A stretch of DNA of 12,826 nt from a virus (Duplodnaviria > Heunggongvirae > Uroviricota > Caudoviricetes), in the IMG/VR virus record IMGVR_UViG_2939167301_000004; one strand, 5' to 3'. Shown one piece after another: positions 801 to 12,826 of the stretch. Below the pieces are notes generated by a model. The model ran no database searches, was not told the origin of the DNA, and worked only from the letters and a program-made list of their open reading frames with translations. The stretch's first letter is position 1; each line of letters starts with the position of its first letter. The translations under genes were made by a program, and so were the position numbers.

Positions 801-1403
801 TTACTCACCGATCTCCTTCACGGTAATACGCAACACTGACTGACGTGATGCCAGTTGCGCACTTTTACGCGAAAAAATCATGTTCTGCGCAGGGGTGAAT
901 TTTTCACGGCTGTCATCCACCGAAGCCACGTCAGGCCTGAATCCGATGGTCGTTAAAATGTCGCTATCCTGTGCGGAATAATTAATTTTTTCACCCTTCG
1001 CAAGCCAGGACAGAAGGGCTTCACGCAGGGCATCTGTGGCACGCTGTATGGCACAGTTTCGGGCAATGGCCGTCAGCTCACTGTAGCCCATCAGCTCTGG
1101 TGCCAGTGCGGCCGCCAGTACTGTGCCGTGCTGCTGCATAAAATCATTCAGCCGGTCGCGGATGCTGATGTGCTGAACGGCTTCATGCGAACGAATATAA
1201 CGACCGGCGGCCTGATTCACCTGCCATTTTCTGACTTCGATAATATTGCGTAATTCGTCCAGGCGGCTGACATTTCTGCCTTCTCCTGACAGAAGCCGCA
1301 GATATTCCTGTTCGGCCGCTGCCAGCTCATTTTTGCGTTGCAGCCATGCTGCTTTGTTATTCTGACAGGTGTCAAAGGCCTGCTGTAAGGCTGTGCTTTC
1401 CAT
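801..1403 (-). CDS. psu: P4 Psu-like polarity suppression / capsid decoration protein
   Basis: 200-aa ORF that I recognise as Psu-like, in the expected position downstream of delta in a sid-delta-psu operon. An IS21-family end lies immediately downstream, so the last ~10 codons may not be native. Confidence 0.65.
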   Translation of the reverse strand: MESTALQQAFDTCQNNKAAWLQRKNELAAAEQEYLRLLSGEGRNVSRLDELRNIIEVRKWQVNQAAGRYIRSHEAVQHISIRDRLNDFMQQHGTVLAAALAPELMGYSELTAIARNCAIQRATDALREALLSWLAKGEKINYSAQDSDILTTIGFRPDVASVDDSREKFTPAQNMIFSRKSAQLASRQSVLRITVKEIGE

Positions 1404-1476
1404 CGTTATCTCTTTCTCATCATGCTGAAGAATAAAAATACGGTGTGCGGCGACGGCCGGGGTTAACCGGCAGCCC

Positions 1477-1977
1477 TCATTCCAGACGCAGCGAATATGA
1501 TTGTGTTTTTAACCGTACTGGCGGCAGTTCCTGTTTTTCATGCAGGCGTTCTGCCAGTTCGTCCGGCGTGACCGGGCGGACAATGAAGCGGGTGATGGTC
1601 TGAAGCGTTTTAAACACCAGACCACAGCCCGGATCCGTGCACACATAAAAACGCTCGGTGACTTCCTGAGACAGACGCCGCGATGTTCTTGACAGCGCAA
1701 GGCCTTTACATCTCCGACAACAATATCCGGTAACAAGCATTCTTTTCGGGCGTTTCATACTGCCGGAGGCTGACGTCAGTGAATCGCGGTATCTCTGTTT
1801 GCCTGAAATGTATTCCATTCCTGAATCTTTACTGTCAGAGAAAAAGCTTTCACTCGCTTCAAATGTCGCAGAGCAATAAATATTCCGGCACTGTGCAATC
1901 ATTATCTTGGTGCCATCGTCCATGAAATGTGCGCGGCGGGTGTGAGCAACATGTCCACACGACGGGCAGTAAATCAT
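1477..1977 (-). CDS. delta: Delta-like late-gene transactivator (tandem Ogr-type zinc finger)
   Basis: 166 aa with two Ogr-like halves, each carrying C-x2-C ... C-x4-C motifs (CPSCGH...CRNIYC and CRRCKG...CTDPGCG). Its start overlaps the sid stop as ATGA (1974-1977). Confidence 0.8.
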   Translation of the reverse strand: MIYCPSCGHVAHTRRAHFMDDGTKIMIAQCRNIYCSATFEASESFFSDSKDSGMEYISGKQRYRDSLTSASGSMKRPKRMLVTGYCCRRCKGLALSRTSRRLSQEVTERFYVCTDPGCGLVFKTLQTITRFIVRPVTPDELAERLHEKQELPPVRLKTQSYSLRLE

Positions 1978-2641
1978 GACAGCAGTCCTCTGGCCTTAAG
2001 CACTGCTCCCTGCTGGTCTATTTTGTCCTGCCACACCTTGCGCTGTGCCGGTGTGCCTGCCACCTCATAATCCATGTGAGGAAGTGTTGCCGCTGACAGT
2101 CCGGTCAGCCGGAGAACCGGCTCGCCGGTGAGGCTGATTTGCATCTGTTTAATTTTCTGTTCCAGCGATGATTTCACCTGCTGCATGACAGCCTTTTCCG
2201 GTGCGACGTAGCCCTGATGGCCGGTGGTGTTGGCGAGCGGATTTTCCTGTACCAGAATGCTCAGATGCATTGCCCGGACAAGCGCCTCACAGGTTTCATT
2301 CAGGGCGTGTTCCAGCTCATGCTCTGCATACAGACTCAGAAGGTGATGATGTGCCTTCCGGTAGGCGGTGGCCGTGCTGTCACACGCCCCTTTCAGGCGT
2401 TCGCGTTCAAAATTCAGCACCACGGCCAGATTGTCATATTCCTGTACCAGCTCCCGGCGTGCCACGCGCTCAATGTGGCGCTGTTTCAGCTCGTCGCTCA
2501 GGACACCACCGGCTGCACGAAAGGCCGTGCGCCAGTCGTCAGCGTCGTTTCCGTCGGCCTGCGCCAGCGCATTTTTTTCCTGCTCTGTGAACCGCCCCGG
2601 GAATCCTGGAGACTAAACTTCCTGAGAAAGAGGTAAACAGG

Positions 2642-2968
2642 ATGACTAAAAATACTCGTTTTTCCCCTGAAGTCCGTCAACGGGCAGTCCGTATGGTTCT
2701 GGAAAGTCAGGGCGAATATGACTCACAATGGGCGACAATTTGTTCCATTGCTCCAAAGATTGGCTGTACGCCGGAGACTCTGCGTGTCTGGGTTCGCCAG
2801 CATGAGCGGGATACCGGGGGCGGTGATGGAGGGCTCACCACCGCTGAACGTCAGCGTCTGAAAGAGCTGGAGCGTGAAAATCGTGAACTGCGCCGCAGTA
2901 ACGATATCCTTCGCCAGGCTTCCGCTTATTTTGCGAAGGCGGAGTTCGACCGCCTCTGGAAAAAATGA
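2642..2968 (+). CDS. IS3-family transposase OrfA (HTH)
   Basis: 108-aa ORF with the N-terminal HTH and leucine-zipper-like region typical of IS3-family OrfA. An A6 run (2960-2965) sits at the orfA stop / orfB start overlap. Confidence 0.9.
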
Positions 2969-3855
2969 TGCCACTGCTGGATAAGCTGCGTGAGCAGTAC
3001 GGGGTCGGACCGCTATGCAGCGAACTGCATATTGCCCCGTCAACGTATTACCACTGTCAGCAACAGCGACATCATCCGGATAAACGCAGTGCCCGTGCGC
3101 AGCGCGATGACTGGCTGAAGAAAGAGATACAGCGCGTATACGATGAAAATCACAAGGTATACGGTGTGCGTAAAGTCTGGCGTCAGTTGTTACGGGAAGG
3201 TATCAGAGTGGCCAGATGCACTGTGGCACGTCTCATGGCGGTTATGGGACTTGCCGGTGTTCTCCGGGGTAAAAAGGTCCGTACGACCATCAGCCGGAAA
3301 GCCGTTGCCGCAGGCGACCGCGTAAACCGTCAGTTCGTGGCAGAACGACCTGACCAGCTGTGGGTGGCTGATTTTACTTACGTCAGCACATGGCAGGGCT
3401 TCGTCTATGTGGCGTTCATCATTGATGTGTTTGCCGGATACATTGTGGGGTGGCGGGTCTCATCGTCCATGGAGACGACATTCGTGCTGGATGCACTGGA
3501 GCAGGCGTTATGGGCCCGTCGACCGTCCGGCACGGTCCATCACAGTGATAAAGGTTCTCAGTATGTATCGCTGGCCTACACACAGCGGCTTAAGGAAGCC
3601 GGATTACTGGCATCAACAGGAAGTACAGGCGACTCGTATGACAACGCGATGGCGGAGAGCATCAATGGTCTTTACAAAGCGGAGGTAATACACCGTAAGA
3701 GCTGGAAAAACCGTGCAGAAGTGGAACTGGCCACACTCACGTGGGTGGACTGGTATAACAATCGACGATTGCTGGAAAGGCTGGGCCATACTCCTCCGGC
3801 AGAAGCAGAAAAAGCTTATTATGCTTCCATCGGAAACGATGATCTGGCAGCCTGA
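2965..3855 (+). CDS. IS3-family transposase OrfB (DDE catalytic domain)
   Basis: 296-aa ORF in the -1 frame relative to orfA with an rve-type DDE core. The A6 run at 2960-2965 is a candidate -1 programmed frameshift site producing an OrfAB fusion. Confidence 0.9.
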
Positions 3856-4039
3856 GTTCACAGATAAAATACTCTCCAGGAAACCCGGGGCGGTTCACTG
3901 CCCGTTCAATGGCCGTGACGGTCTCATCCATCAGGCGGGCGTTCTCAAGATGGGCGGCTCTGGCCTTTTCCAGTTGTGCCAGTGCGGGTTGCAGATATTC
4001 AGGGATAGTGTGGTCAGACATTTTCCGGCTCCTCGTCAC

Positions 4040-4111
4040 TTCAGGTTAAGAAAATTGTGACGTACACCGGACAGCAACACGACGCATTGCAGATGTGCCA
4101 GCCCTGACACA
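4040..4111 (-). promoter_or_regulatory. Candidate Psid late promoter with two TGT-N12-ACA activator dyads
   Basis: Perfect TGT-N12-ACA at 4056-4073 and 4094-4111, centred about 18 and 55 bp upstream of an inferred start near 4047 for sid (ATG 4021). This is the Ogr/Delta-type activator site architecture. Confidence 0.5.
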
Positions 4112-4190
4112 GGAGACTCATCCTCAGACCGGCAAGCCAGGAAAAGGTCGCAGGAAAAACCGGCTTACTGTTTGTTTTTTTATATTTTAC

Positions 4191-4294
4191 TGTTCACCTC
4201 TGTTCACCATAAGAAAAAAGATAAGTAATACAGTAAGTTAAAGGGTGAACAATCGCAGTAATGACTGTTCACCGTCTGTTCACCACTGTTCACC
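4191..4294. repeat. ori-like iteron cluster (six TGTTCACC octamers)
   Basis: TGTTCACC at 4191, 4201, 4266, 4277, 4287 and inverted at 4244-4251, with roughly 10-bp phasing, followed by an AT-rich tract (about 4300-4400). Matches the type I iterons bound by P4 alpha. Confidence 0.6.
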
Positions 4295-4452
4295 CGTTGA
4301 TGGGCTTTTTATGCTGTTTATTACTGTTTATTTTTATTAATTCACTGAAATAAATAAGAAAAAACAATTTGTATTTCACTATAAAAAATTCCAGGTCCTT
4401 CAGAACCCTTTGAGACCCTTCCAGTCCAGATGGATAAAAAACACACAGCCAT

Positions 4453-4520
4453 TGTAAGGTTGCCGGAACAAATTCCCCCTGTTGCGTCTGCTGAAAATAT
4501 TCACAAAATAAAGCGCTACC
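4453..4520 (+). promoter_or_regulatory. Candidate PLL late promoter upstream of vis
   Basis: Perfect TGT-N12-ACA dyad at 4453-4470 and an imperfect one about 36 bp downstream; would place a start near 4516, about 55 nt before the vis ATG. Confidence 0.4.
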
Positions 4521-4572
4521 CGAAGCCGGACGGACTTATCCGGTGCTGTATGGACATTAACGAGGTAGCCCG

Positions 4573-4839
4573 ATGCAAGCTGTTTTTTCTTCCCCGTCTC
4601 CCGCCCCTGTTACGCCACTGATGCCGCTGCCGGACATCACGCAGGAGCGTTTTTTACGTCTGCCGGAAGTGATGCACCTGTGCGGCCTGTCACGCTCGAC
4701 CATCTATGAACTCATCCGTAAGGGGGAATTTCCGCCGCAGGTGAGTCTTGGCGGTAAAAATGTGGCCTGGCTGCACTCTGAAGTCACCGCATGGATGGCC
4801 GGGCGCATTGCCGGACGCAAACGGGGGTACGACGCATGA
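4573..4839 (+). CDS. vis: AlpA-family phage regulatory protein (P4 Vis / orf88-like)
   Basis: 88-aa ORF with the AlpA-type HTH signature (RFLRLPEV...[17 protein letters not shown]); GAGG Shine-Dalgarno 7 nt upstream. Confidence 0.8.
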
Positions 4840-5435
4840 TGATGCCCGCTCTGCAAAAACTCCCTTTTTCTGGCTTGCCTTTTTCCGGCATTTGCGGATA
4901 TAGTTTTTCCGCTGTCGCAAAATCGGCAGCCGGGCGTGGAAACCCGTGTAACTCGAAGGCGACATATGACGCGCCATGCGTCTTTTTTTGTGTCGCAATC
5001 AACGCCACAGAGCGCCAGATTATGGTGTGGTGTGTGGTCAGTCGTGCAGATGGCATTCCGTGCATCCTGCCCGCGTCCGCTCATTATGCCGCAGAGTCAA
5101 TGGTAGCTCAGGCGGGGCAGCCTCCGGGCTGGCCGGTATTCTTCGAGGCCGGTATTTCCACCCCCGTCTGGGCTATCGCCATTGAGCGTGGAAACTCCGG
5201 CGATAGCAGTTATTTGCTACTCGAAGGAGGCTGCCTTATGGCTACAACCCTTACCCCCTCACACCCTGAATTTGTCTTTGTGTTTGCGGCTGTCCGTCGT
5301 GCAGACCGTCATCCCCGTATCTGTATGCTTCGCACCGTCGCCGGTGATGAACGCAGTGCCCGCCGTTCCCTTGTCCGTGACTATGTGCTCTCCCTTGCTG
5401 CCCGTCTGCCGGTGGTGGAGGTGTCCCGTGCGTAA
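4836..5435 (+). CDS. Long open frame (199 codons) spanning the immunity region; possibly eta-like; coding status uncertain
   Basis: Its ATG overlaps the vis stop as ATGA (4836-4839). The N-terminal two-thirds is low-complexity and contains the candidate PLE promoter and a terminator hairpin. There is a strong internal start (GGAGG then ATG at 5238) giving a 65-aa product in the same frame. Confidence 0.35.
4875..4904 (+). promoter_or_regulatory. Candidate sigma70 promoter (PLE-like)
   Basis: TTGCCT (4875-4880), 18-bp spacer, TATAGT (4899-4904). Confidence 0.45.
4968..4989 (+). terminator. Intrinsic terminator-like hairpin in the leader (attenuator candidate)
   Basis: GACGC-gccat-GCGTC stem-loop followed by seven T residues, about 60 nt downstream of the candidate promoter. 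Confidence 0.4.
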
Positions 5436-5715
5436 TAAAAAAGCCCCTCAGACCGTCTCAGCACGTCATGACGCCCGTGAACACCTCAGCATTGAGGCTT
5501 ACCATAAGCTCAACCGCGCCAGCGCCGTATCCCGGTTTGTTGGGGGTGATTTGATTCACCGTGAACTCTCCGGCCTGCATCAGCTCTACATTCCGCATAT
5601 TTTCAGCTACCTGAATGAAGATATTGATTTTGTGCTGAATGAGCTGAAAGCCAAAGGCCTGTGCCGCGATTTTCTCGCCCAGCAGAAAGACCGGGGAGAC
5701 AGGACGCATGTTTGA
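5428..5715 (+). CDS. Small protein at the epsilon position (95 aa; candidate helper-derepression protein)
   Basis: GTG start with GGAGG 6 nt upstream; overlaps the stop of the preceding frame. Size and position match what I recall for P4 epsilon; the sequence itself was not verified. Confidence 0.5.
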
Positions 5716-6163
5716 TTTTCCCCAGCCCGGTGAGATTTACCGTTCTGCCGGTTTTCCCGATGTGGCCGTGGTCGGCATTCTGGAAGACGGTATTCCGTGG
5801 GAAATGCCATACCGCTGCCCGGAAATTGTCTGGAACCCGTACCGCCGTAAATTCAGTATCCTTGTGCGTATCCTCGCCGACGGGCGCACCACAGACATCC
5901 CGCTGGGGCGTTTTCTGCGGGAATTTACCTGTGACCGTCCTGACCTGTTTAAACGCAGCCCCGTAAACCGGCATGCGGTACTGAAAGAAATGGCCGGAGA
6001 CCCGGAATTACAGAAATGGCGGGAGAAATATCTGGATATTTACCCGCAGGACACTGTTCCGGTCAGCCGGGCAGCACCGGTAGCGCGGGAATGGCGGGAA
6101 ATTCCCCGCACGGAGCCTGACCCGGAAACCACCCCGGATAACAGTTACCGCAATTATCTGTAA
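5708..6163 (+). CDS. Hypothetical protein (P4 orf151-like)
   Basis: 151-aa ORF; its ATG overlaps the upstream stop as ATGTTTGA (translational coupling). Confidence 0.6.
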   Translation: MFDFPQPGEIYRSAGFPDVAVVGILEDGIPWEMPYRCPEIVWNPYRRKFSILVRILADGRTTDIPLGRFLREFTCDRPDLFKRSPVNRHAVLKEMAGDPELQKWREKYLDIYPQDTVPVSRAAPVAREWREIPRTEPDPETTPDNSYRNYL

Positions 6164-6298
6164 TTAAAAAACGACACCCGAAAAATTAAATGTGCGTATT
6201 CGCGCAGGGATACGCACGTCTTCAGGAGACGCAGATATGCCTTATCAGTTAATGCAACCGGCACGGAATGCAGTCATCTGTCACAGGGAGGAAAGCAA

Positions 6299-6619
6299 AT
6301 GAAAACACCCTTACCGCCCGTCTTACGCGCTGCCCTTTACCGTCGCGCTGTCGCCTGTGCCTGGCTGACCGTGTGCGAACGTCAGCACCGCTACCCGCAT
6401 CTCACCCTTGAGTCACTGGAGGCGGCCATCGCCGCTGAGCTGGAGGGCTTTTATCTGCGCCAGCACGGTGAGGAAAAAGGGCGTCAGATAGCCTGTGCCC
6501 TGCTGGAAGATTTAATGGAATCCGGCCCCCTGAAGGCCGCGCCGTCGCTGTCCTTTCTCGGGCTGGTTGTGATGGATGAACTCTGTGCCCGTCACATAAA
6601 AGCGCCGGTACTGCACTGA
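6299..6619 (+). CDS. Hypothetical protein (P4 orf106 / cnr-like copy-number regulator candidate)
   Basis: 106-aa ORF with GGGAGG Shine-Dalgarno, immediately upstream of the primase gene. Confidence 0.6.
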
Positions 6620-6633
6620 AGGAGAACAACACC

Positions 6634-8967
6634 ATGAAAATGAACGTAACCGCCACCGTCAGCCATGCGCTCGGCCACTGGCCGCGTATTCTCCCGGTGC
6701 TGGGGATTCAGGTGCTGAAGAACCGTCATCAGCCCTGTCCGGTCTGTGGCGGGAGTGACCGCTTCCGTTTTGATGACAGGGAGGGGCGCGGCACCTGGTA
6801 CTGCAATCAGTGTGGTGCCGGTGACGGCCTGAAACTGGTTGAAAAGGTGTTTGGTGTCTCCCCGTCCGACGCGGCCGCAAAGGTGGCTGCCGTGACCGGC
6901 AGCCTGCCCCCGGCTGACCCGGCAGTGACGGCCGCCGCCGGTGCTGAAACAGACGCTGCCCGGAAGAACGCCGCCGCACTGGCACAAACCCTGATGGCAA
7001 AAACTCGTCCCGGAACCGGTAACGCCTACCTGACCCGCAAGGGCTTTCCCGGCCGGGAATGCCGGATGCTGACCGGCACACACAGAGCCGGTGGCGTGAG
7101 CTGGCGTGCCGGTGACCTTGTGGTGCCACTGTATGACGACAGCGGCGAGCTGGTTAACCTTCAGTTAATCAGTGCTGACGGCCATAAGCGCACCCTGAAA
7201 GGCGGACAGGTCAGGGGCACCTGTCACACCCTTGAAGGACAGAATCAGGCCGGAAAACGTCTGTGGATAGCGGAGGGATACGCGACCGCACTTACCGTAC
7301 ATCACCTGACCGGTGAAACGGTGATGGTGGCGCTTTCTTCCGTGAACCTCCTTTCTCTGACCAGCCTTGCCCGGCAGAAGCATCCGGCCTGTCAGATTGT
7401 CCTTGCCGCAGACCGTGACCTCAGCGGTGACGGCCAGAAAAAAGCCGCCGCAGCCGCAGATGCGTGTGAGGGCGTTGTTGCCCTGCCGCCGGTCTTCGGT
7501 GACTGGAATGATGCCTTCACGCAGTACGGCGGGGAGGCCACCCGTAAGGCCATTTATGATGCCATCCGGCCACCGGCTGAAAGCCCGTTCGACACCATGA
7601 GCGAAGCAGAGTTTTCCGCCATGAGTACCAGCGAAAAGGCCATGCGTATCTATGAGCATTACGGCGAGGCGCTCGCGGTCGATGCCAACGGCCAGCTTCT
7701 GTCCCGTTATGAAAATGGTGTCTGGAAGGTGCTGCCGCCACAGGACTTTGCCCGGGATGTGGCCGGGCTGTTTCAGCGTCTGCGCGCGCCGTTCTCCTCC
7801 GGGAAGGTGGCCTCCGTGGTGGACACCCTGAAGCTGATTATTCCGCAGCAGGAAGCCCCCTCCCGCCGCCTGATTGGCTTTCGTAACGGCGTGCTCGACA
7901 CGCAGAACGGCACGTTCCACCCGCACAGTCCGTCACACTGGATGCGCACCCTGTGCGATGTGGATTTCACCCCGCCGGTGGACGGTGAAACGCTGGAGAC
8001 CCACGCCCCCGCGTTCTGGCGCTGGCTTGACCGTGCCGCCGGTGGCCGTGCGGAAAAACGCGACGTGATTCTGGCCGCACTGTTTATGGTGCTGGCAAAC
8101 CGCTACGACTGGCAGCTCTTTCTGGAGGTGACCGGTCCCGGCGGCAGCGGCAAAAGTATCATGGCCGAAATAGCCACCCTGCTGGCCGGGGAGGATAACG
8201 CCACGTCGGCCACCATTGAGACGCTGGAATCCCCGCGTGAACGTGCCGCGTTAACTGGCTTCTCACTGATACGCCTGCCGGACCAGGAAAAATGGAGCGG
8301 CGACGGTGCCGGACTCAAGGCCATCACCGGCGGCGATGCGGTGTCCGTTGACCCGAAATACCGGGATGCGTACTCCACGCACATCCCGGCGGTGATTCTG
8401 GCCGTGAACAATAACCCGATGCGCTTCACCGACCGCAGCGGCGGCGTGTCACGCCGGCGGGTGATTATTCACTTCCCGGAACAGATAGCCCCGCAGGAGC
8501 GCGACCCGCAGCTTAAGGACAAAATCACCCGCGAGCTGGCGGTCATCGTGCGTCACCTGATGCAGAAATTCAGCGACCCGATGCTCGCCCGGTCACTGCT
8601 TCAGTCCCAGCAGAACTCAGACGAGGCACTGAACATCAAACGGGATGCCGACCCGACGTTTGATTTTATCGGCTATCTGGAAACCCTGCCGCAGACCAGC
8701 GGCATGTATATGGGGAACGCCAGTATCATCCCGCGTAATTACCGTAAATACCTCTATCACGCCTATCTGGCCTACATGGAGGCAAACGGCTACCGGAATG
8801 TACTCAGTCTGAAAATGTTCGGGCTGGGGCTGCCGGTGATGCTGAAGGAATACGGACTGAATTACGAGAAGCGCCATACCAAACAGGGGATACAGACCAA
8901 CCTGACGCTGAAAGAGGAAAGCTACGGCGACTGGCTGCCAAAATGTGACGACCCTGCAACAACCTGA
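6634..8967 (+). CDS. alpha: P4 alpha-type primase-helicase
   Basis: 777-aa ORF with an N-terminal Cys4 zinc motif (CPVCGG...CNQCG), a central primase region and a C-terminal P-loop NTPase (GPGGSGKS); AAGGAG Shine-Dalgarno. Confidence 0.9.
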   Translation: MKMNVTATVSHALGHWPRILPVLGIQVLKNRHQPCPVCGGSDRFRFDDREGRGTWYCNQCGAGDGLKLVEKVFGVSPSDAAAKVAAVTGSLPPADPAVTAAAGAETDAARKNAAALAQTLMAKTRPGTGNAYLTRKGFPGRECRMLTGTHRAGGVSWRAGDLVVPLYDDSGELVNLQLISADGHKRTLKGGQVRGTCHTLEGQNQAGKRLWIAEGYATALTVHHLTGETVMVALSSVNLLSLTSLARQKHPACQIVLAADRDLSGDGQKKAAAAADACEGVVALPPVFGDWNDAFTQYGGEATRKAIYDAIRPPAESPFDTMSEAEFSAMSTSEKAMRIYEHYGEALAVDANGQLLSRYENGVWKVLPPQDFARDVAGLFQRLRAPFSSGKVASVVDTLKLIIPQQEAPSRRLIGFRNGVLDTQNGTFHPHSPSHWMRTLCDVDFTPPVDGETLETHAPAFWRWLDRAAGGRAEKRDVILAALFMVLANRYDWQLFLEVTGPGGSGKSIMAEIATLLAGEDNATSATIETLESPRERAALTGFSLIRLPDQEKWSGDGAGLKAITGGDAVSVDPKYRDAYSTHIPAVILAVNNNPMRFTDRSGGVSRRRVIIHFPEQIAPQERDPQLKDKITRELAVIVRHLMQKFSDPMLARSLLQSQQNSDEALNIKRDADPTFDFIGYLETLPQTSGMYMGNASIIPRNYRKYLYHAYLAYMEANGYRNVLSLKMFGLGLPVMLKEYGLNYEKRHTKQGIQTNLTLKEESYGDWLPKCDDPATT

Positions 8968-8984
8968 CCCTCATGACCCACCTG

Positions 8985-9008
8985 ACCGGCATCTGCCGGT
9001 CTTTTTTT
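8985..9008 (+). terminator. Rho-independent terminator after alpha
   Basis: ACCGGCA-tc-TGCCGGT hairpin followed by a T7 run. Confidence 0.55.
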
Positions 9009-9026
9009 ATCCCGATATCCCCCGCA

Positions 9027-9320
9027 GGTGAACAATCCACTGTTCACCCTTCACCGTATATTCACCCGTTATCATACTGAAATTAAAAGAGAAAAACGAA
9101 AGGTGAACAGTGTGAACAATCAAATCAAAAAAAACTTTTTTCTTCCTGAGTGATTTCAGTACGGGGGATTAATCACCGGTATGAGTCACACCGGCAGAAT
9201 GCCGGAGGTGAAGAATCGAATGTTCACCCTTCACCCATTATTCACCACCTATCACTCTGAAATAAAAGGAGAAAACAGAAAGGTGAACAGTGTGAACAGT
9301 TCTTTCGAAAAAAAATTTTT
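9027..9320. repeat. crr-like region: two ~115-bp direct repeats carrying iterons
   Basis: Units at about 9027-9140 and 9207-9320 (180-bp period), each with GGTGAACA / TGTTCACC / TTCACC(C/G) / TGTGAACA octamers. Confidence 0.65.
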
Positions 9321-9342
9321 TATGTGGATAAAAGATGCACTG

Positions 9343-9369
9343 GTTTGGATCCGAGCTACGGATCCAAAC
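9343..9369. repeat. Perfect 11-bp inverted repeat (GTTTGGATCCG-agcta-CGGATCCAAAC)
   Basis: Read directly from the sequence; contains two GGATCC sites. Confidence 0.6.
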
Positions 9370-9510
9370 TTACTGATTAAAAATGATTTAACTTTCCGAT
9401 TTATTGATGGGCTGAAAATAGATTGGTCAGAAAAACAGTGGGGGCACAAAAGGGGGCATATTTCATTGTTGTGTTTTATTATTTGTTTTTTATCATTAAC
9501 TTATTTTGAT

Positions 9511-9533
9511 GTTTGAGTCCGGCCTTCGCACCA
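9511..9533 (+). other. attP-type core resembling the 3' end of a tRNA-Leu gene
   Basis: GTTTGAGTCCGGCCTTCGCACCA resembles a T-loop / acceptor-stem / CCA 3' end. There is no upstream tRNA body: the 5' T-stem complement is absent. Confidence 0.5.
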
Positions 9534-9547
9534 TCGGAACATCAATA

Positions 9548-9570
9548 GACGTCAACGGACGTCTTTTTTT
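9548..9570 (+). terminator. Rho-independent terminator just after the att core
   Basis: GACGTC-aacg-GACGTC hairpin followed by a T7 run. Confidence 0.5.
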
Positions 9571-9614
9571 GTGCCTAAAATCCAGTATCCGCAAGGCTTT
9601 CCTCGCTTTTTCAC

Positions 9615-9650
9615 TCAACCTAAGTCAACCTGATTCAATCTACATCAACT
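9615..9650 (+). promoter_or_regulatory. Four 10-bp-phased TCAAYY direct repeats (candidate integrase arm-type / autoregulatory sites)
   Basis: TCAACC at 9615 and 9625, TCAATC at 9635, TCAACT at 9645. An 8-bp inverted repeat GGGTACAA (9660-9667) / TTGTACCC (9694-9701) follows, upstream of the int start. Confidence 0.4.
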
Positions 9651-9731
9651 TACTGATGCGGGTACAACTGCGGGTATTTCCCGGTTCGATAATGTTTGTA
9701 CCCACACAGAACCCTTGAAAGGATACTCATC

Positions 9732-10833
9732 ATGGCTCTGAGTGATGTGAAGGTTCGTTCGGCTAAGCCTGAAGCAAAAGCCTATAAGCTGACCGACGGT
9801 GAAGGCATGGTTTTGCTGGTTCACCCTAACGGCTCCAAATACTGGCGGCTACGTTATCGCTTTGGCGGTAAAGAGAAGATGCTGGCATTGGGGAAATACC
9901 CCGAAGTGTCGTTGGCGGATGCCAGGGCACGCCGGGATGAGGCTCGTAAGCTTTTAGCTAATGGTGTCGATCCCAGTGAAAACAAGAAAGCTGTTAAGGT
10001 AGAACAGGAACAAGAGGCGATAACGTTGAAGTAGTCGCCAGAGACTGGCACGCCAGCAATCAGAAGTGGTCGGCATCGCATAGCGCTCGTGTTTTGAAAA
10101 GTCTGGAGGATAATCTCTTTACTGCTATCGGTAAGCGGAACATTGCGGAACTGAAGACGCGGGATCTTCTTGTACCCATTAAAGCAGTCGAGTCATCCGG
10201 GCGGCTCGAAGTTGCCGCCCGTTTACAGCAGCGTACTACCGCGATTATGCGCTTTGCCGTTCAGAGCGGCTTAATCGACTACAACCCCGCGCAAGAGATT
10301 GCAGGTGCGGTTGCTACGGCGAAAAGACAGCACCGTGCAGCTCTTGAACTGAACCGTATACCTGAATTACTTCATCGCATAGATCACTATTCTGGCAGAC
10401 CGTTAACTCGGCTGGCGGTTGAACTCACTTTATTGGTTTTCATCCGTTCGAGCGAGCTGCATTTTGCCCGCTGGTCAGAAGTAGATTTTGAAACGGCTAT
10501 GTGGACAATCCCAGGTGAGCGTGAGCAACTGGAAGGAGTCAAGCATTCTCAGCGTGGCTCGAAGATGCGGACACCACACCTTGTACCTTTGTCGCGGCAG
10601 GCCCTAAGTATTTTGGAAAAGATCAAAAGCATGAGCGGAAATTGAGAGCTGATTTTTGTGGGCGATCACGATCCACGTAAGCCGATGAGTGAGAATACGG
10701 TGAACAAGGCTTTGCGCGTAATGGGGTATGACACGAAGGTCGAGGTTTGTGGGCATGGCTTCAGGACGATGGCTTGTAGTTCGTTGATTGAGTCGGGATT
10801 ATGGTCGAGGGATGCGGTAGAGCGGCAGATGAG
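9732..10833 (+). pseudogene. int: P4-type tyrosine integrase, inactivated
   Basis: N-terminal MALSDVKVRSAKPEAKAYKLTDGEG... is a P4-family integrase signature. There is a frameshift near 10020-10035, an in-frame TGA at 10643-10645, and a 3' truncation by IS629 at 10834 (about 368 codons retained; the catalytic C-terminus is missing). Confidence 0.8.
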
Positions 10834-10875
10834 TGAACCGCCCCGGGTTTCCTGGAGAGTGTTTTATCTGTGAAC

Positions 10876-11762
10876 TCAGGCTGCCAGATCATCGTTTCCG
10901 ATGGAAGCATAATAAGCTTTTTCTGCTTCTGCCGGAGGAGTATGGCCCAGCCTTTCCAGCAATCGTCGATTGTTATACCAGTCCACCCACGTGAGTGTGG
11001 CCAGTTCCACTTCTGCACGGTTTTTCCAGCTCTTACGGTGTATTACCTCCGCTTTGTAAAGACCATTGATGCTCTCCGCCATCGCGTTGTCATACGAGTC
11101 GCCTGTACTTCCTGTTGATGCCAGTAATCCGGCTTCCTTAAGCCGCTGTGTGTAGGCCAGCGATACATACTGAGAACCTTTATCACTGTGATGGACCGTG
11201 CCGGACGGTCGACGGGCCCATAACGCCTGCTCCAGTGCATCCAGCACGAATGTCGTTTCCATGGACGATGAGACCCGCCACCCCACGATGTATCCGGCAA
11301 ACACATCAATGATGAACGCCACATAGACGAAGCCCCGCCATGTGCTGACGTAAGTAAAATCAGCCACCCACAGCTGGTCAGGTCGTTCTGCCACGAACTG
11401 ACGGTTTACGCGGTCGCCTGCGGCAACGGCTTTCCGGCTGATGGTCGTACGGACCTTTTTACCCCGGAGAACACCGGCAAGTCCCATAACCGCCATGAGA
11501 CGTGCCACAGTGCATCTGGCCACTCTGATACCTTCCCGTAACAACTGACGCCAGACTTTACGCACACCGTATACCTTGTGATTTTCATCGTATACGCGCT
11601 GTATCTCTTTCTTCAGCCAGTCATCGCGCTGCGCACGGGCACTGCGTTTATCCGGATGATGTCGCTGTTGCTGACAGTGGTAATACGTTGACGGGGCAAT
11701 ATGCAGTTCGCTGCATAGCGGTCCGACCCCGTACTGCTCACGCAGCTTATCCAGCAGTGGCA

Positions 11763-11766
<4 letters not shown>
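10876..11766 (-). CDS. IS3-family transposase OrfB (copy B)
   Basis: 296 aa, one substitution (Q to R) relative to copy A OrfB. Confidence 0.9.

Positions 11767-12826
<1,060 letters not shown>

Follow-up and report, generated by a model that had tools for sequence, protein, structure and literature searches.

Satellite features to the left of the core

The region described here (positions 9343-9731) lies in a 12,826-nt stretch of DNA, the whole of which we call the window, between the cis replication region (crr) of a P4-like satellite and a degenerate integrase gene. The five features that had been predicted in it are all present, each at its predicted position or a few bases away, and all exceed chance. 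The left end of the window is an IS21-family element. Positions 3898-9534 are collinear with phage P4 (9706-4077, 97.6% identity), and the P arm of the attachment site is contiguous with crr and with alpha. For context, the alpha (primase-helicase) gene of the satellite is followed on the + strand by its intrinsic terminator t-alpha (8984-9008; found in a terminator scan and annotated as talpha in P4, X51522). The crr (9022-9321) was recognised by the self-match of its two 120-bp direct repeats (9022-9141 and 9202-9321), and is collinear with P4 4590-4291. From there to the core, positions 9322-9514 are identical to the P4 P arm at 193 out of 193 nucleotides (P4 4290-4098).

The leftmost element of the region is a palindrome (9343-9369) with two 11-bp arms, GTTTGGATCCG (9343-9353) and CGGATCCAAAC (9359-9369), and a 5-nt loop, identical in P4. 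It had been predicted as a perfect 11-bp inverted repeat, and it is indeed the only perfect inverted repeat of at least 11 bp (loop of 3-10 nt) in the window; only 3 of 200 dinucleotide shuffles contained one, so that its presence exceeds chance. Folded as a hairpin it reaches -18.5 kcal/mol (z = -6.4). It lies about 175 nt to the left of the core. Most of the diverged P4-like P arms have a counterpart at -173 to -181 nt, in which the loop varies and the stem GGATCCG/CGGAWCC is conserved. A single pair has changed on both sides (A-U/U-A), a covariation pattern that fits a hairpin and a dimer-binding palindrome alike. In either case, the palindrome belongs to the satellite and not to the downstream integrase gene.

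Two tandem 12-bp arm-type sites for a P4-type integrase, GTGGGGGCACAA and AAGGGGGCATAT, follow on the + strand at 9438-9461. Their sequence is identical in P4, where the counterparts are annotated as 'attP arm sequence repeat' (4163-4174 and 4151-4162), and such sites were found in every P4-like P arm examined. These repeats had been overlooked in the original prediction. Next comes an A+T-rich spacer (9469-9496, + strand), built of a 14-bp tandem repeat (TTGTGTTTTATTAT/TTGTTTTTTATCAT) and again identical in P4, which could possibly serve as a bending or host-factor site. A search of Rfam over 8900-9800, both at gathering thresholds and with E-values up to 1, returned nothing credible for the palindrome, the core or the spacer. 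The satellite side closes with the attR core GAGTCCGGCCTTCGCACCA (9515-9533, + strand), which alignment and BLAST break-points identify as the final 20 nt of leuX with one G missing.

The island arm and its integrase pseudogene

To the right of the core the homology changes. Positions 9534-9731 show no relationship to the P4 P' arm (48% identity) and match instead the spacers that separate leuX from an integrase gene in Shigella flexneri (100%), Enterobacter (99%) and Morganella (97.5%). In the window the spacer from 9533 to the int start codon at 9732 measures 198 nt. In about 45 of 60 species representatives scanned with ARAGORN, a tRNA-Leu(CAA) ends at this same distance (186 nt in a few cases) before the same int. 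The 198-nt spacer, which lies between an intact tRNA and this int in about 50 enterobacterial species, is thus the fixed spacer of an intB-type attL. When the whole window was searched with ARAGORN no tRNA was detected, because the fragment present, the last ~20 nt of the tRNA, is too short. As the intact tRNA is absent on the left, the region is a former attL.

An intrinsic terminator (9547-9570, + strand) was recovered both by terminator scan and by covariation. Its stem pairs AGACGTC (9547-9553) with GACGTCT (9558-9564) around the loop AACG, and is followed by seven T (9564-9570). Thermodynamically it is modest (z = -1.6), and compensatory changes maintain the pairing in 5 of the 7 stem pairs among relatives, as is characteristic of a rho-independent terminator. 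In undisturbed relatives it stands 13 nt past the CCA end of an intact leuX, a placement shared by about 50 species in which the tRNA is intact. The proposal that it would close a reconstituted tRNA gene was therefore sound: it is a genuine tRNA-proximal terminator, which in those relatives would end the tRNA transcript and insulate int. In the active island the hairpin would likewise have blocked read-through from the tRNA into int. In ICEKp1, a terminator borne by the element between the tRNA and int attenuates read-through (PMC13023037). Our locus resembles it in having an element-borne stem-loop terminator between a host tRNA gene and a P4-family int; here, however, the satellite appears to have moved the tRNA promoter 12 kb away, and the terminator would no longer be fed by tRNA transcription.

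The terminator is followed by a conserved block, GTGCCTAAAATCCAG (9571-9585, + strand), that aligns with the A-rich TTTAAAATCAATG stretch of P4 and is nearly invariant across diverged relatives, including those located at other tRNA genes. Inspection by eye of both strands of 9571-9660 for the IHF consensus WATCAANNNNTTR gave no convincing match.

Further to the right, four TCAAYY repeats in exact 10-bp phase occupy 9615-9650 on the + strand (TCAACC at 9615, TCAACC at 9625, TCAATC at 9635 and TCAACT at 9645). They had been predicted from the sequence, and pattern searches bear them out: the phased pattern matches once in the window and in none of 200 shuffles, even with two mismatches allowed. 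In diverged lineages repeats 2-4 survive as TCAAC- or TCTAC-like motifs in 10-bp phase, and repeat 1 is poorly conserved. The suggestion that the repeat be sought in the att arms of other P4-family elements also proved fruitful, in that the phased architecture recurs with another motif: P4-like P' arms carry four TCC(G/T) in 10-bp phase, at an equal distance from the first arm site. Operators of directionality factors are known to be direct repeats one helical turn apart (PMC7498355), and the island repeats have this geometry, with four copies in an att arm where three or more, at a spacing of about 10-11 bp, would be expected. Like the lambda Xis, 186 Apl, P2 Cox and P4 Vis arrays (PMC7498355), they are short, direct, spaced by one helical turn within an att arm and overlap a promoter region. 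Unlike the P4 array, which has TCCG at the same place, they read TCAAC, and the gene for the island's factor lies outside the window; their operator role is putative. By analogy with these systems, the chances are about even that they are operators of an excisionase-type directionality factor of the island, overlapping the int promoter region.

Two direct arm-type sites are predicted for the island integrase at 9657-9676 (+ strand), where a repeat search found copies of TGCGGGTA(C/T) 12 bp apart (9657-9664 and 9669-9676). They align with the two copies of GGGGGCAT in P4 and, on the strength of this alignment, can be considered the positional homologues of the P4 P' arm repeats. This 12-bp-phased direct repeat had escaped the original prediction. 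A third predicted site, TTGTACCCACA, the reverse complement of TGTGGGTACAA, lies inverted at 9696-9706 (- strand) and aligns with TGTGCCCCCAAA, a P4 repeat that is likewise inverted and overlaps the start of P4 int. An 8-bp inverted repeat near int had been reported before: it is real (GGGTACAA at 9660-9667, TTGTACCC at 9696-9703), although its end had been set 2 nt short, at 9701 instead of 9703, and it consists of one direct arm-site copy and the inverted third copy. In its fuller form the repeat has 11-nt arms (9657-9667 and 9696-9706) that are 91% complementary. Such 8-bp inverted repeats are enriched between 9343 and 9731, with six observed against a shuffle mean of 0.35. The three island copies switch together with the integrase lineage, reading GCGGGTA, GTTGGTA or GAGTATA, as expected of arm sites.

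Between the direct and the inverted sites, within the conserved TTCGATAAT, lies GATAAT (9688-9693, + strand), which is conserved in nearly all relatives and is a candidate -10 element of the int promoter. A scan of 8900-9900 with the sigma-70 consensus yielded no passing promoter, so we can only infer that of int. In P4, the int promoter is repressed both by Int itself and by Vis (PMC7286903). By homology, the N-terminal domain of the active island integrase would have bound the arm sites for two purposes, assembly of the recombination complex and, as in P4, repression of the int promoter.

The integrase gene itself (9732-10831, + strand) is a P4-family pseudogene, identified through its translation, the list of open reading frames, Pfam (Arm-DNA-bind_3, Phage_int_M and Phage_integrase) and RefSeq, which labels it 'frameshifted; internal stop; incomplete'. 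The arm-binding N-terminal domain is intact, the frame is shifted near 10022 and interrupted by an in-frame TGA (10643-10645), and the 3' end is cut off, 1.1 kb into the gene, by an IS3-family element (10832-12143). The former attL of the island is hence accompanied by an integrase gene whose domains are recognisable but which is broken.

State of the core and the probable point of strand exchange

The core is the sole stretch common to both homologies, with P4 to its left and the leuX island to its right: BLAST identity with P4 breaks off at 9534, where the tRNA-like core (9515-9533) finishes, and homology with leuX/intB begins at 9511. A tRNA-Leu-like core at 9511-9533 with about two differences from the leuX 3' end had been predicted, and alignment of GTTTGAGTCCGGCCTTCGCACCA with leuX GTTCGAGTCCGGCCTTCGGCACCA agrees, resolving the differences into one substitution (9514) and one deleted G. 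Compared with the 20-bp core of P4 only the G is missing, with 19 of 20 bases kept in 19 nt (9515-9533). An ungapped search for the P4 core, allowing up to three mismatches, found no match because the difference is an indel. In E. coli EJN001 a second copy of the core, this one with GG, is found in leuX, 12.3 kb upstream.

The core mismatches had been taken to fit the degenerate state of int, an interpretation that our results refute. The T at 9514 is P4 P-arm sequence, and a single G is the usual state of cores linked to a P arm. Among non-redundant junctions, cores with a P arm on their left carried one G in 39 of 41 cases and GG in the other two (laboratory P4 and one contig); those with the tRNA body on their left carried GG in 49 of 49 and one G in none. 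The 39 one-G junctions comprise 19 different right flanks and three arm-site lineages. All four contiguous P-core-P' junctions, which come from metagenomes and could be tandem satellites instead of free attP sites, also have one G. The one-G core is the normal state of P-arm-linked cores, whatever their right flank, and not a decay tied to the dead integrase gene. The missing G belongs to the attP half contributed by the satellite, and strand exchange would therefore take place to the right of the deletion, within the GCACCA that forms the last ~6 nt of the tRNA 3' end.

Could the G instead have been lost after integration, either through decay at random or through selection for a 'locking' mutation, in a tRNA fragment that had been displaced and no longer had a function? 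Such a fragment is free of the constraints of tRNA function, and the published attP of laboratory P4 does have GG, against the one-G rule. Yet the explanation is most unlikely, given that the same deletion recurs in nearly all P-arm-linked cores, across every arm-site lineage and right flank counted above, and in all the contiguous P-core-P' junctions. Independent identical mutations on this scale are implausible, and tRNA copies displaced by another type of element, which carries a longer tRNA copy, keep their GG. We also considered, and rejected, the idea that the deletion is carried by the island, which would leave leuX broken until its repair by a satellite, because the same spacer shows GG when the tRNA body is on its left and one G follows the P arm across all 19 right flanks. 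As an independent test of the one-G state we looked for the distal attR of KpLE2 in K-12; no copy of the core was present up to 49 kb downstream of leuX, and this attR has probably decayed.

Taken jointly, the observations tip the balance slightly towards a general rule, by which all leuX-targeting P4-family integrases would use a one-G look-alike as attP (CTTCGCACCA), with exchange confined to GCACCA, together with a conserved phased operator array upstream of the P' arm sites whose motif is specific to each lineage (TCCG in P4, TCAAC here). If this holds, element DNA would at no time serve to rebuild the tRNA, the 20-bp P4 core of the textbooks would represent an unusual laboratory allele, and the G or GG state would tell the 'element' side from the 'host' side in any stacked array. 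For annotators, a single-G core marks the element-derived half of a site, and it bears on the position at which P4-family integrases cut. The conserved P' layout, in which a terminator is followed by four phased repeats and three arm sites (two direct, one inverted), could also serve to predict integrase and excisionase sites in uncharacterised islands.

A probable stack of two elements at leuX

The segment of the window from 9343 to 9731 is very probably the junction of two integrative elements stacked at leuX, the tRNA-Leu(CAA) gene of E. coli. Here the attR of a P4-like satellite prophage would meet what was once the attL of an older island at leuX, one of the K-12 intB type. The left part, up to 9533, would be the right end of the satellite (P arm plus core), with its family-conserved palindrome, two GGGGGCA arm sites, A+T-rich spacer and 19-nt copy of the leuX 3' end. 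The right part (9534-9731) would come from an island of the K-12 intB/PR-Y type that once lay directly against an intact leuX, and would represent its P' arm, with its terminator, conserved block (9571-9585), four phased TCAAYY, three arm-type sites around GATAAT and, beyond them, the int pseudogene. We infer that the seam arose when the satellite integrase recombined the satellite attP with leuX, an insertion that would have displaced the island some 12 kb from the tRNA gene, and with it the few bases at the very end of the former tRNA copy. Within the window both elements are fossils: the satellite is interrupted by IS elements, both in sid and next to psu, and the integrase gene of the island is dead.

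The layout of the full locus was deduced from near-identical strains; the window itself contains neither leuX nor the satellite's own int. E. coli EJN001 is 100% identical over window positions 833-2587 and 3898-12826, and its order is leuX, intact P4-type int, cargo, psu/delta/sid, alpha, crr, the seam region, the degenerate int and IS, with core copies at both ends of the satellite. The cognate P4-type int thus adjoins leuX, about 12 kb upstream, in strains whose locus is otherwise identical, and the matching attL (leuX, P' arm and P4-type int) occurs in EJN001 as well as in E47, both of which share the locus; at the corresponding end the window has its IS21-family element. The composite was found in 63 complete E. 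coli genomes.

Each half resembles known systems. The attP/attR of phage P4 (Pierson & Kahn 1987; GenBank X05947, X51522) shares the P arm base for base, with both annotated arm repeats and with crr and alpha to the left, but its P' half is replaced here by the unrelated island arm and its core has 20 nt instead of 19; as the P' half of P4 attP is absent, the seam is an attR and not an attP. The leuX-intB locus of K-12 (cryptic PR-Y/KpLE2), 70.7% identical in DNA to 9511-10833, has the same succession of tRNA 3' end, terminator hairpin, TCAAC-like repeats in phase, three arm sites (two direct, one inverted) and int; in EJN001 as in K-12, the fec operon follows downstream. K-12 differs in having an intact leuX attached, a 186-nt spacer and GTTGGTA/GATGGTA arm sites, whereas here the satellite replaces the tRNA body and the sites read GCGGGTA. 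The arrangement is real, and of an ordinary and well-known kind. Stacked islands, with P4-like prophages adjoining tRNA-Leu-CAA, have been described in Enterobacteriaceae (PMC6177240). As here, a P4-like prophage at tRNA-Leu(CAA) lies beside another acquired block, with repeated tRNA 3' ends at the borders; in contrast to that account, in which junction anatomy and core state are not described, the second element is here a decayed intB-type island.

The original prediction had instead seen a single P4-family attP (P, core and P'), used and autoregulated by the downstream int, with core and int decaying together. The order crr, arm, core, arm, int does resemble the P4 attP map, and arm sites, phased repeats and an inverted site at the int start are common to P4. 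What stands from the prediction of a compact recombination and autoregulation region is an attachment site with a tRNA-Leu core and a layout of arm sites and autoregulation homologous to P4; what falls is that it forms one attP for the downstream int. Indeed, identity with P4 drops from 100% to the left of the core to 48% to its right, and the arm motifs are not those of one element, with GGGGGCA to the left and three GCGGGTA to the right. Moreover, about 50 species have an intact tRNA attached to the right side, a real satellite int of P4 type (63% DNA identity to the island int) lies beside leuX in EJN001, and the missing G is typical of P-arm-linked cores regardless of the right flank. Together these leave the single attP with next to no probability. 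The consequence of the two-element junction is mainly corrective: a reading of crr, arm, core, arm and int as one attP would credit sites to an integrase that is not theirs and give a false picture of how mobile the two elements are. The current understanding of site-specific recombination is unaffected. The locus also provides a clear case of stacking at leuX, in which one satellite takes the place of another while the island remnant behind them stays fixed. Such satellites often carry anti-phage cargo.

The order of arrival could in principle have been the reverse, with the satellite first at leuX and the island integrating later into the pseudo-site offered by the satellite attR. Both orders give the same seam of satellite P, core and island P', so that structure alone is silent on this point; the attR core retains the GCACCA deduced to be exchanged, and stacks of as many as three elements are found at leuX. 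This order is nonetheless improbable in the light of other strains. In strain TUM2805 the same remnant of the island, with 100% identity as far as and including the IS junction, lies behind a different, retron-bearing P4-like satellite. The same pseudogene and IS junction are hence found behind at least two unrelated satellites, and an island with a dead integrase gene is unable to integrate; at least one satellite must have come after the death of the island int. Furthermore, the island int is a pseudogene in the E. coli strains examined, whereas the satellites in front of it vary and often have an intact int.

Two homologies meeting at the core

The window derives from an E. coli chromosome and is collinear with phage P4 over 833-2587 (99%) and 3898-9534 (97.6%). 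It carries genes of a P4-like satellite of leuX, the tRNA-Leu(CAA) gene, in the order psu, delta, sid and, further on, alpha and crr. Identity with P4 is without any mismatch over 9322-9514 (193/193) and ceases at 9534, where the P4 core (the copy of the leuX 3′ end) has its last base. Beyond this point, 9534-9731 shares 48% identity with the P4 P′ arm, the level of unrelated sequences, but matches the spacers between leuX and the integrase gene of Shigella flexneri (100%), Enterobacter wuhouensis (99%), Morganella (97.5%) and Yersinia pestis (83%). Homology to the K-12 leuX-intB junction (70.7%) starts at 9511, within the tRNA 3′ end, and the core is the sole overlap of both homologies. Using ARAGORN, we measured 198 nt (186 in a few) from the end of tRNA-Leu(CAA) to the int ATG in about 45 of 60 species representatives; the identical 198-nt spacing separates 9533 from 9732, in a window where ARAGORN detects no tRNA.

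The layout of the whole locus was visible in near-identical strains. E. coli EJN001 matches the window at 100% identity outside the sid IS and the leftmost 832 bases, and its order is ahr, leuX, an intact P4-type int, cargo, psu, delta, sid and, further on, alpha, crr, the junction region, a degenerate int and an IS3-family element, with the fec operon about 15 kb beyond, as in K-12 KpLE2. It holds two core copies 12.3 kb apart, one within leuX with two Gs (GG) and the other, at the position of window 9521-9533, with one of them deleted (one G). E47 has the same layout, and the composite junction is present in 63 complete genomes.

The break-point, the fixed spacer and this layout identify the region as the attR of the satellite fused to the former attL of an older leuX island of the K-12 intB type. 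The region's left half is the P arm published for P4, and its right half a close relative of the K-12 leuX-intB junction. The original prediction of an att region with a terminator, phased repeats and palindromes thus stands for these features, but not for its assignment to a single element: an attP of one element is contradicted by the different arm systems on the two sides, and a current attL by the absent tRNA and the dead int, while the region has the make-up of both a satellite attR and a former island attL. Earlier work describes P4-like prophages next to tRNA-Leu-CAA as well as islands stacked at tRNA genes (PMC6177240, PMC8628076), and this locus is a further instance: chimeric, fossil and ordinary.

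In E. coli TUM2805 the island remnant is 100% identical from 9518 through the IS junction, and is preceded by another P4-like satellite, which carries a retron as cargo and differs in its P arm and in having a shorter tRNA match. As an island with a dead int cannot integrate, at least this satellite arrived after the island, and satellites turn over ahead of a fixed island remnant. For the first event, the reverse order (satellite before island) is formally possible. The TUM2805 cargo is a retron St85-type defence system (L004 1840-3760) directly left of its attR, an example of cargo turnover before the same remnant. In some other P4-like satellites (loci L094, at about 100-240, L119 and L122) the upstream tRNA body is replaced by foreign DNA with a longer tRNA copy, starting at CGTGCCGG and in the GG state, which points to an element of a third type and to stacks of three at leuX.

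Palindrome, arm sites and phased repeats

As noticed at first, a perfect 11-bp inverted repeat is present (9343-9353 / 9359-9369). No other of that quality occurs in the window, and one turns up in 3 of 200 dinucleotide shuffles; its fold reaches -18.5 kcal/mol (z = -6.4). The repeat is a satellite feature: P4 has the identical sequence, and most P4-like P arms, regardless of their divergence, carry a version 173-181 nt to the left of the core in which the stem (GGTTAGGATCCG / CGGAWCCTAACC) is conserved and the loop is free. Because only one pair changes on both sides, a hairpin and a dimer-binding palindrome fit equally well.

Two sets of direct repeats that had been overlooked, GGGGGCA twice at 9438-9461 and TGCGGGTA twice at 9657-9676, are the key to the anatomy of the region. 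The predicted 8-bp inverted repeat (9660-9667 / 9696-9703) is indeed there and extends to 11-nt arms (9657-9667 / 9696-9706), but its left arm is a direct arm-type site, TGCGGGTA, which occurs twice (9657 and 9669, spacing 12 bp), and its right arm is a third, inverted copy (9696-9706). In the alignment with P4, these island sites fall on its P′ arm repeats, of which two are direct and the third, at the start of int, is inverted. Across lineages the three copies switch jointly, to GCGGGTA, GTTGGTA or GAGTATA, which would be the signature of sites read by a co-evolving protein, and Int begins with an Arm DNA-binding domain (E = 8e-31). A near-invariant TTCGATAAT separates the direct copies from the inverted one; within it, GATAAT (9688-9693) is a candidate -10, with no full promoter around it passing the promoter scan. 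P4 Int represses its own promoter (PMC7286903), and by analogy the island Int may have done the same.

The four phased TCAAYY repeats were recovered at 9615, 9625, 9635 and 9645, and 200 shuffles gave nothing equivalent. Conservation of repeat 1 is weak; repeats 2-4 are kept as TCAAC/TCTAC/TCAAG, in 10-bp phase, in lineages whose integrase N-termini are only 66-78% identical, including elements at tRNA-Leu(TAA) and other tRNAs. P4 and 15 P4-like P′ arms carry four TCC(G/T) that keep a 10-bp phase exactly. In P4 and P4-like arms (L001 8330-8420; L002, which is P4, 3990-3940; L116-L127) this array directly precedes two direct GGGGGCAT arm sites. The distance from array to arm site is the same in P4-like arms (offsets 8/18/28/38) and in the window (10/20/30/40), with the arm site at 52 in both. 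The annotated P4 Pint has its -35 between repeats 3 and 4 and its -10 inside the first arm repeat. Operators of directionality factors are typically direct repeats spaced one helical turn (PMC7498355), and accounts citing Cali 2004 and Piazzolla 2006 describe P4 Vis as binding and bending attP and repressing Pint (PMC7286903, PMC2603039, PMC7498355). On the strength of this shared geometry, the known operator spacing and the behaviour of Vis, there is roughly an even chance that the TCAAYY repeats are operators of an excisionase-type factor of the island. Alternatively, they could be additional sites for the integrase or for host factors; the motif stays the same across integrase lineages within the intB-type group, as the arm sites do not, and this speaks against binding by the N-domain of the integrase.

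An exact 11-nt direct repeat, AACTTACTGAT, occurs after the satellite palindrome (9367-9377) and between TCAAYY repeat 4 and the first island arm site (9647-9657). It may be due to chance (0.03-0.05 expected in 460 nt, a rough estimate and not a computed one), and is not conserved in K-12-type relatives.

The core and its missing G

The tRNA-like stretch at 9511-9533 does match the leuX 3′ end, with one substitution (9514) and one missing G. The proposed tie of these mismatches to the decay of int fails: the P4 core begins only with GAGT, so that T9514 is part of the P4 P arm, and the one-G state follows the left flank. Indeed, one and the same island spacer is accompanied by GG where the tRNA flanks it on the left, and by one G where a P arm does. 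Among IMG/VR contigs with a P4-type left flank and core, whose right flanks are of many kinds, 29 have one G and 1 has GG. On the tRNA side, the junctions of P4-like satellites are GG in 11/11, and contiguous P-core-P′ junctions in metagenomes are one G in 4/4. When non-redundant junctions in all fetched DNA were counted, a P arm at the left went with one G in 39 cases (19 distinct right flanks) and with GG in 2 (lab P4 and one contig); an intact leuX tRNA body at the left went with GG in 49/49 and with one G in none. The one-G core, CTTCGCACCA (window 9521-9533; L086-L127, L012, L022, L031, L046), accounts for 39/41 across three arm-site lineages, as the P arms of GAGTATA (L012, L046) and GTTGGTA (L031) elements also have one G, leaving the published P4 attP (GG) as an outlier among P-arm-linked cores. 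The displaced, longer tRNA copies of L094, L119 and L122, from another element type, keep GG, which fits the rule because such elements must rebuild the tRNA.

From these alignments, the one-G state appears native to attP in this integrase branch. The exchange point would then lie right of the missing G, within GCACCA. Such a position refines the common description of P4-type sites as starting in the T loop, and it agrees with the asymmetric 3′-end sublocation that bioRxiv 10.1101/2020.11.02.365908 summarises for certain integrase subfamilies. Only two points here, both drawn from sequence comparison, strike us as mildly new: the one-G rule for P-arm-linked cores and the apparently conserved four-repeat geometry of the P′ arm.

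Terminator and surroundings of the junction

The terminator scan returned the expected hairpin and T-run at 9547-9570. In relatives with an intact leuX it begins 13 nt past the CCA; in diverged relatives 5/7 stem pairs remain paired through changes on both sides, and some lineages substitute a different hairpin before the same T-run. By analogy with the element-borne terminator between tRNA and int analysed in ICEKp1 (PMC13023037), it would be a tRNA terminator carried by the element and an insulator of int. It closes no tRNA gene today, because the satellite displaced leuX by 12 kb.

The satellite and the adjoining island are broken up by three IS elements. One, of the IS3 family, lies in sid (2588-3899, plus strand), a second, inverted copy truncates the island int (10832-12143, minus strand), and the third is an ISEc12-like IS21-family element (1-832; IstB, Pfam PF01695). 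This third element stops right at the psu 3′ end, so that in this genome the satellite is cut off from its cos, cargo and int side. Both IS3-family copies are IS1203/IS629-like, each with an ALIL frameshift pseudoknot, and enclose 6.9 kb with alpha, crr and the att junction, a segment that could be inverted or moved jointly. Rfam places isrK at 4911-4988 and the C4 antisense RNA (P4 CI immunity RNA) at 5096-5183, as expected of a P4-like element. The 111-aa 'hypothetical protein' of the RefSeq annotation (9181-9516) is probably no real gene: Pfam gives no match, and the frame runs through a mosaic of DNA sites, from the second crr repeat across the palindrome and along the P arm as far as the core.

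The tRNA-proximal terminator module is itself mosaic (window 9534-9585; L024, L054, L058, L063, L086, L100, L102): window-type and K-12-type modules are each found with either island type, and a block past the T-run, GTGCCTRAAATC, also follows leuX where no such island continues. Together, these observations suggest that recombination has another boundary, about 50 nt past the tRNA.
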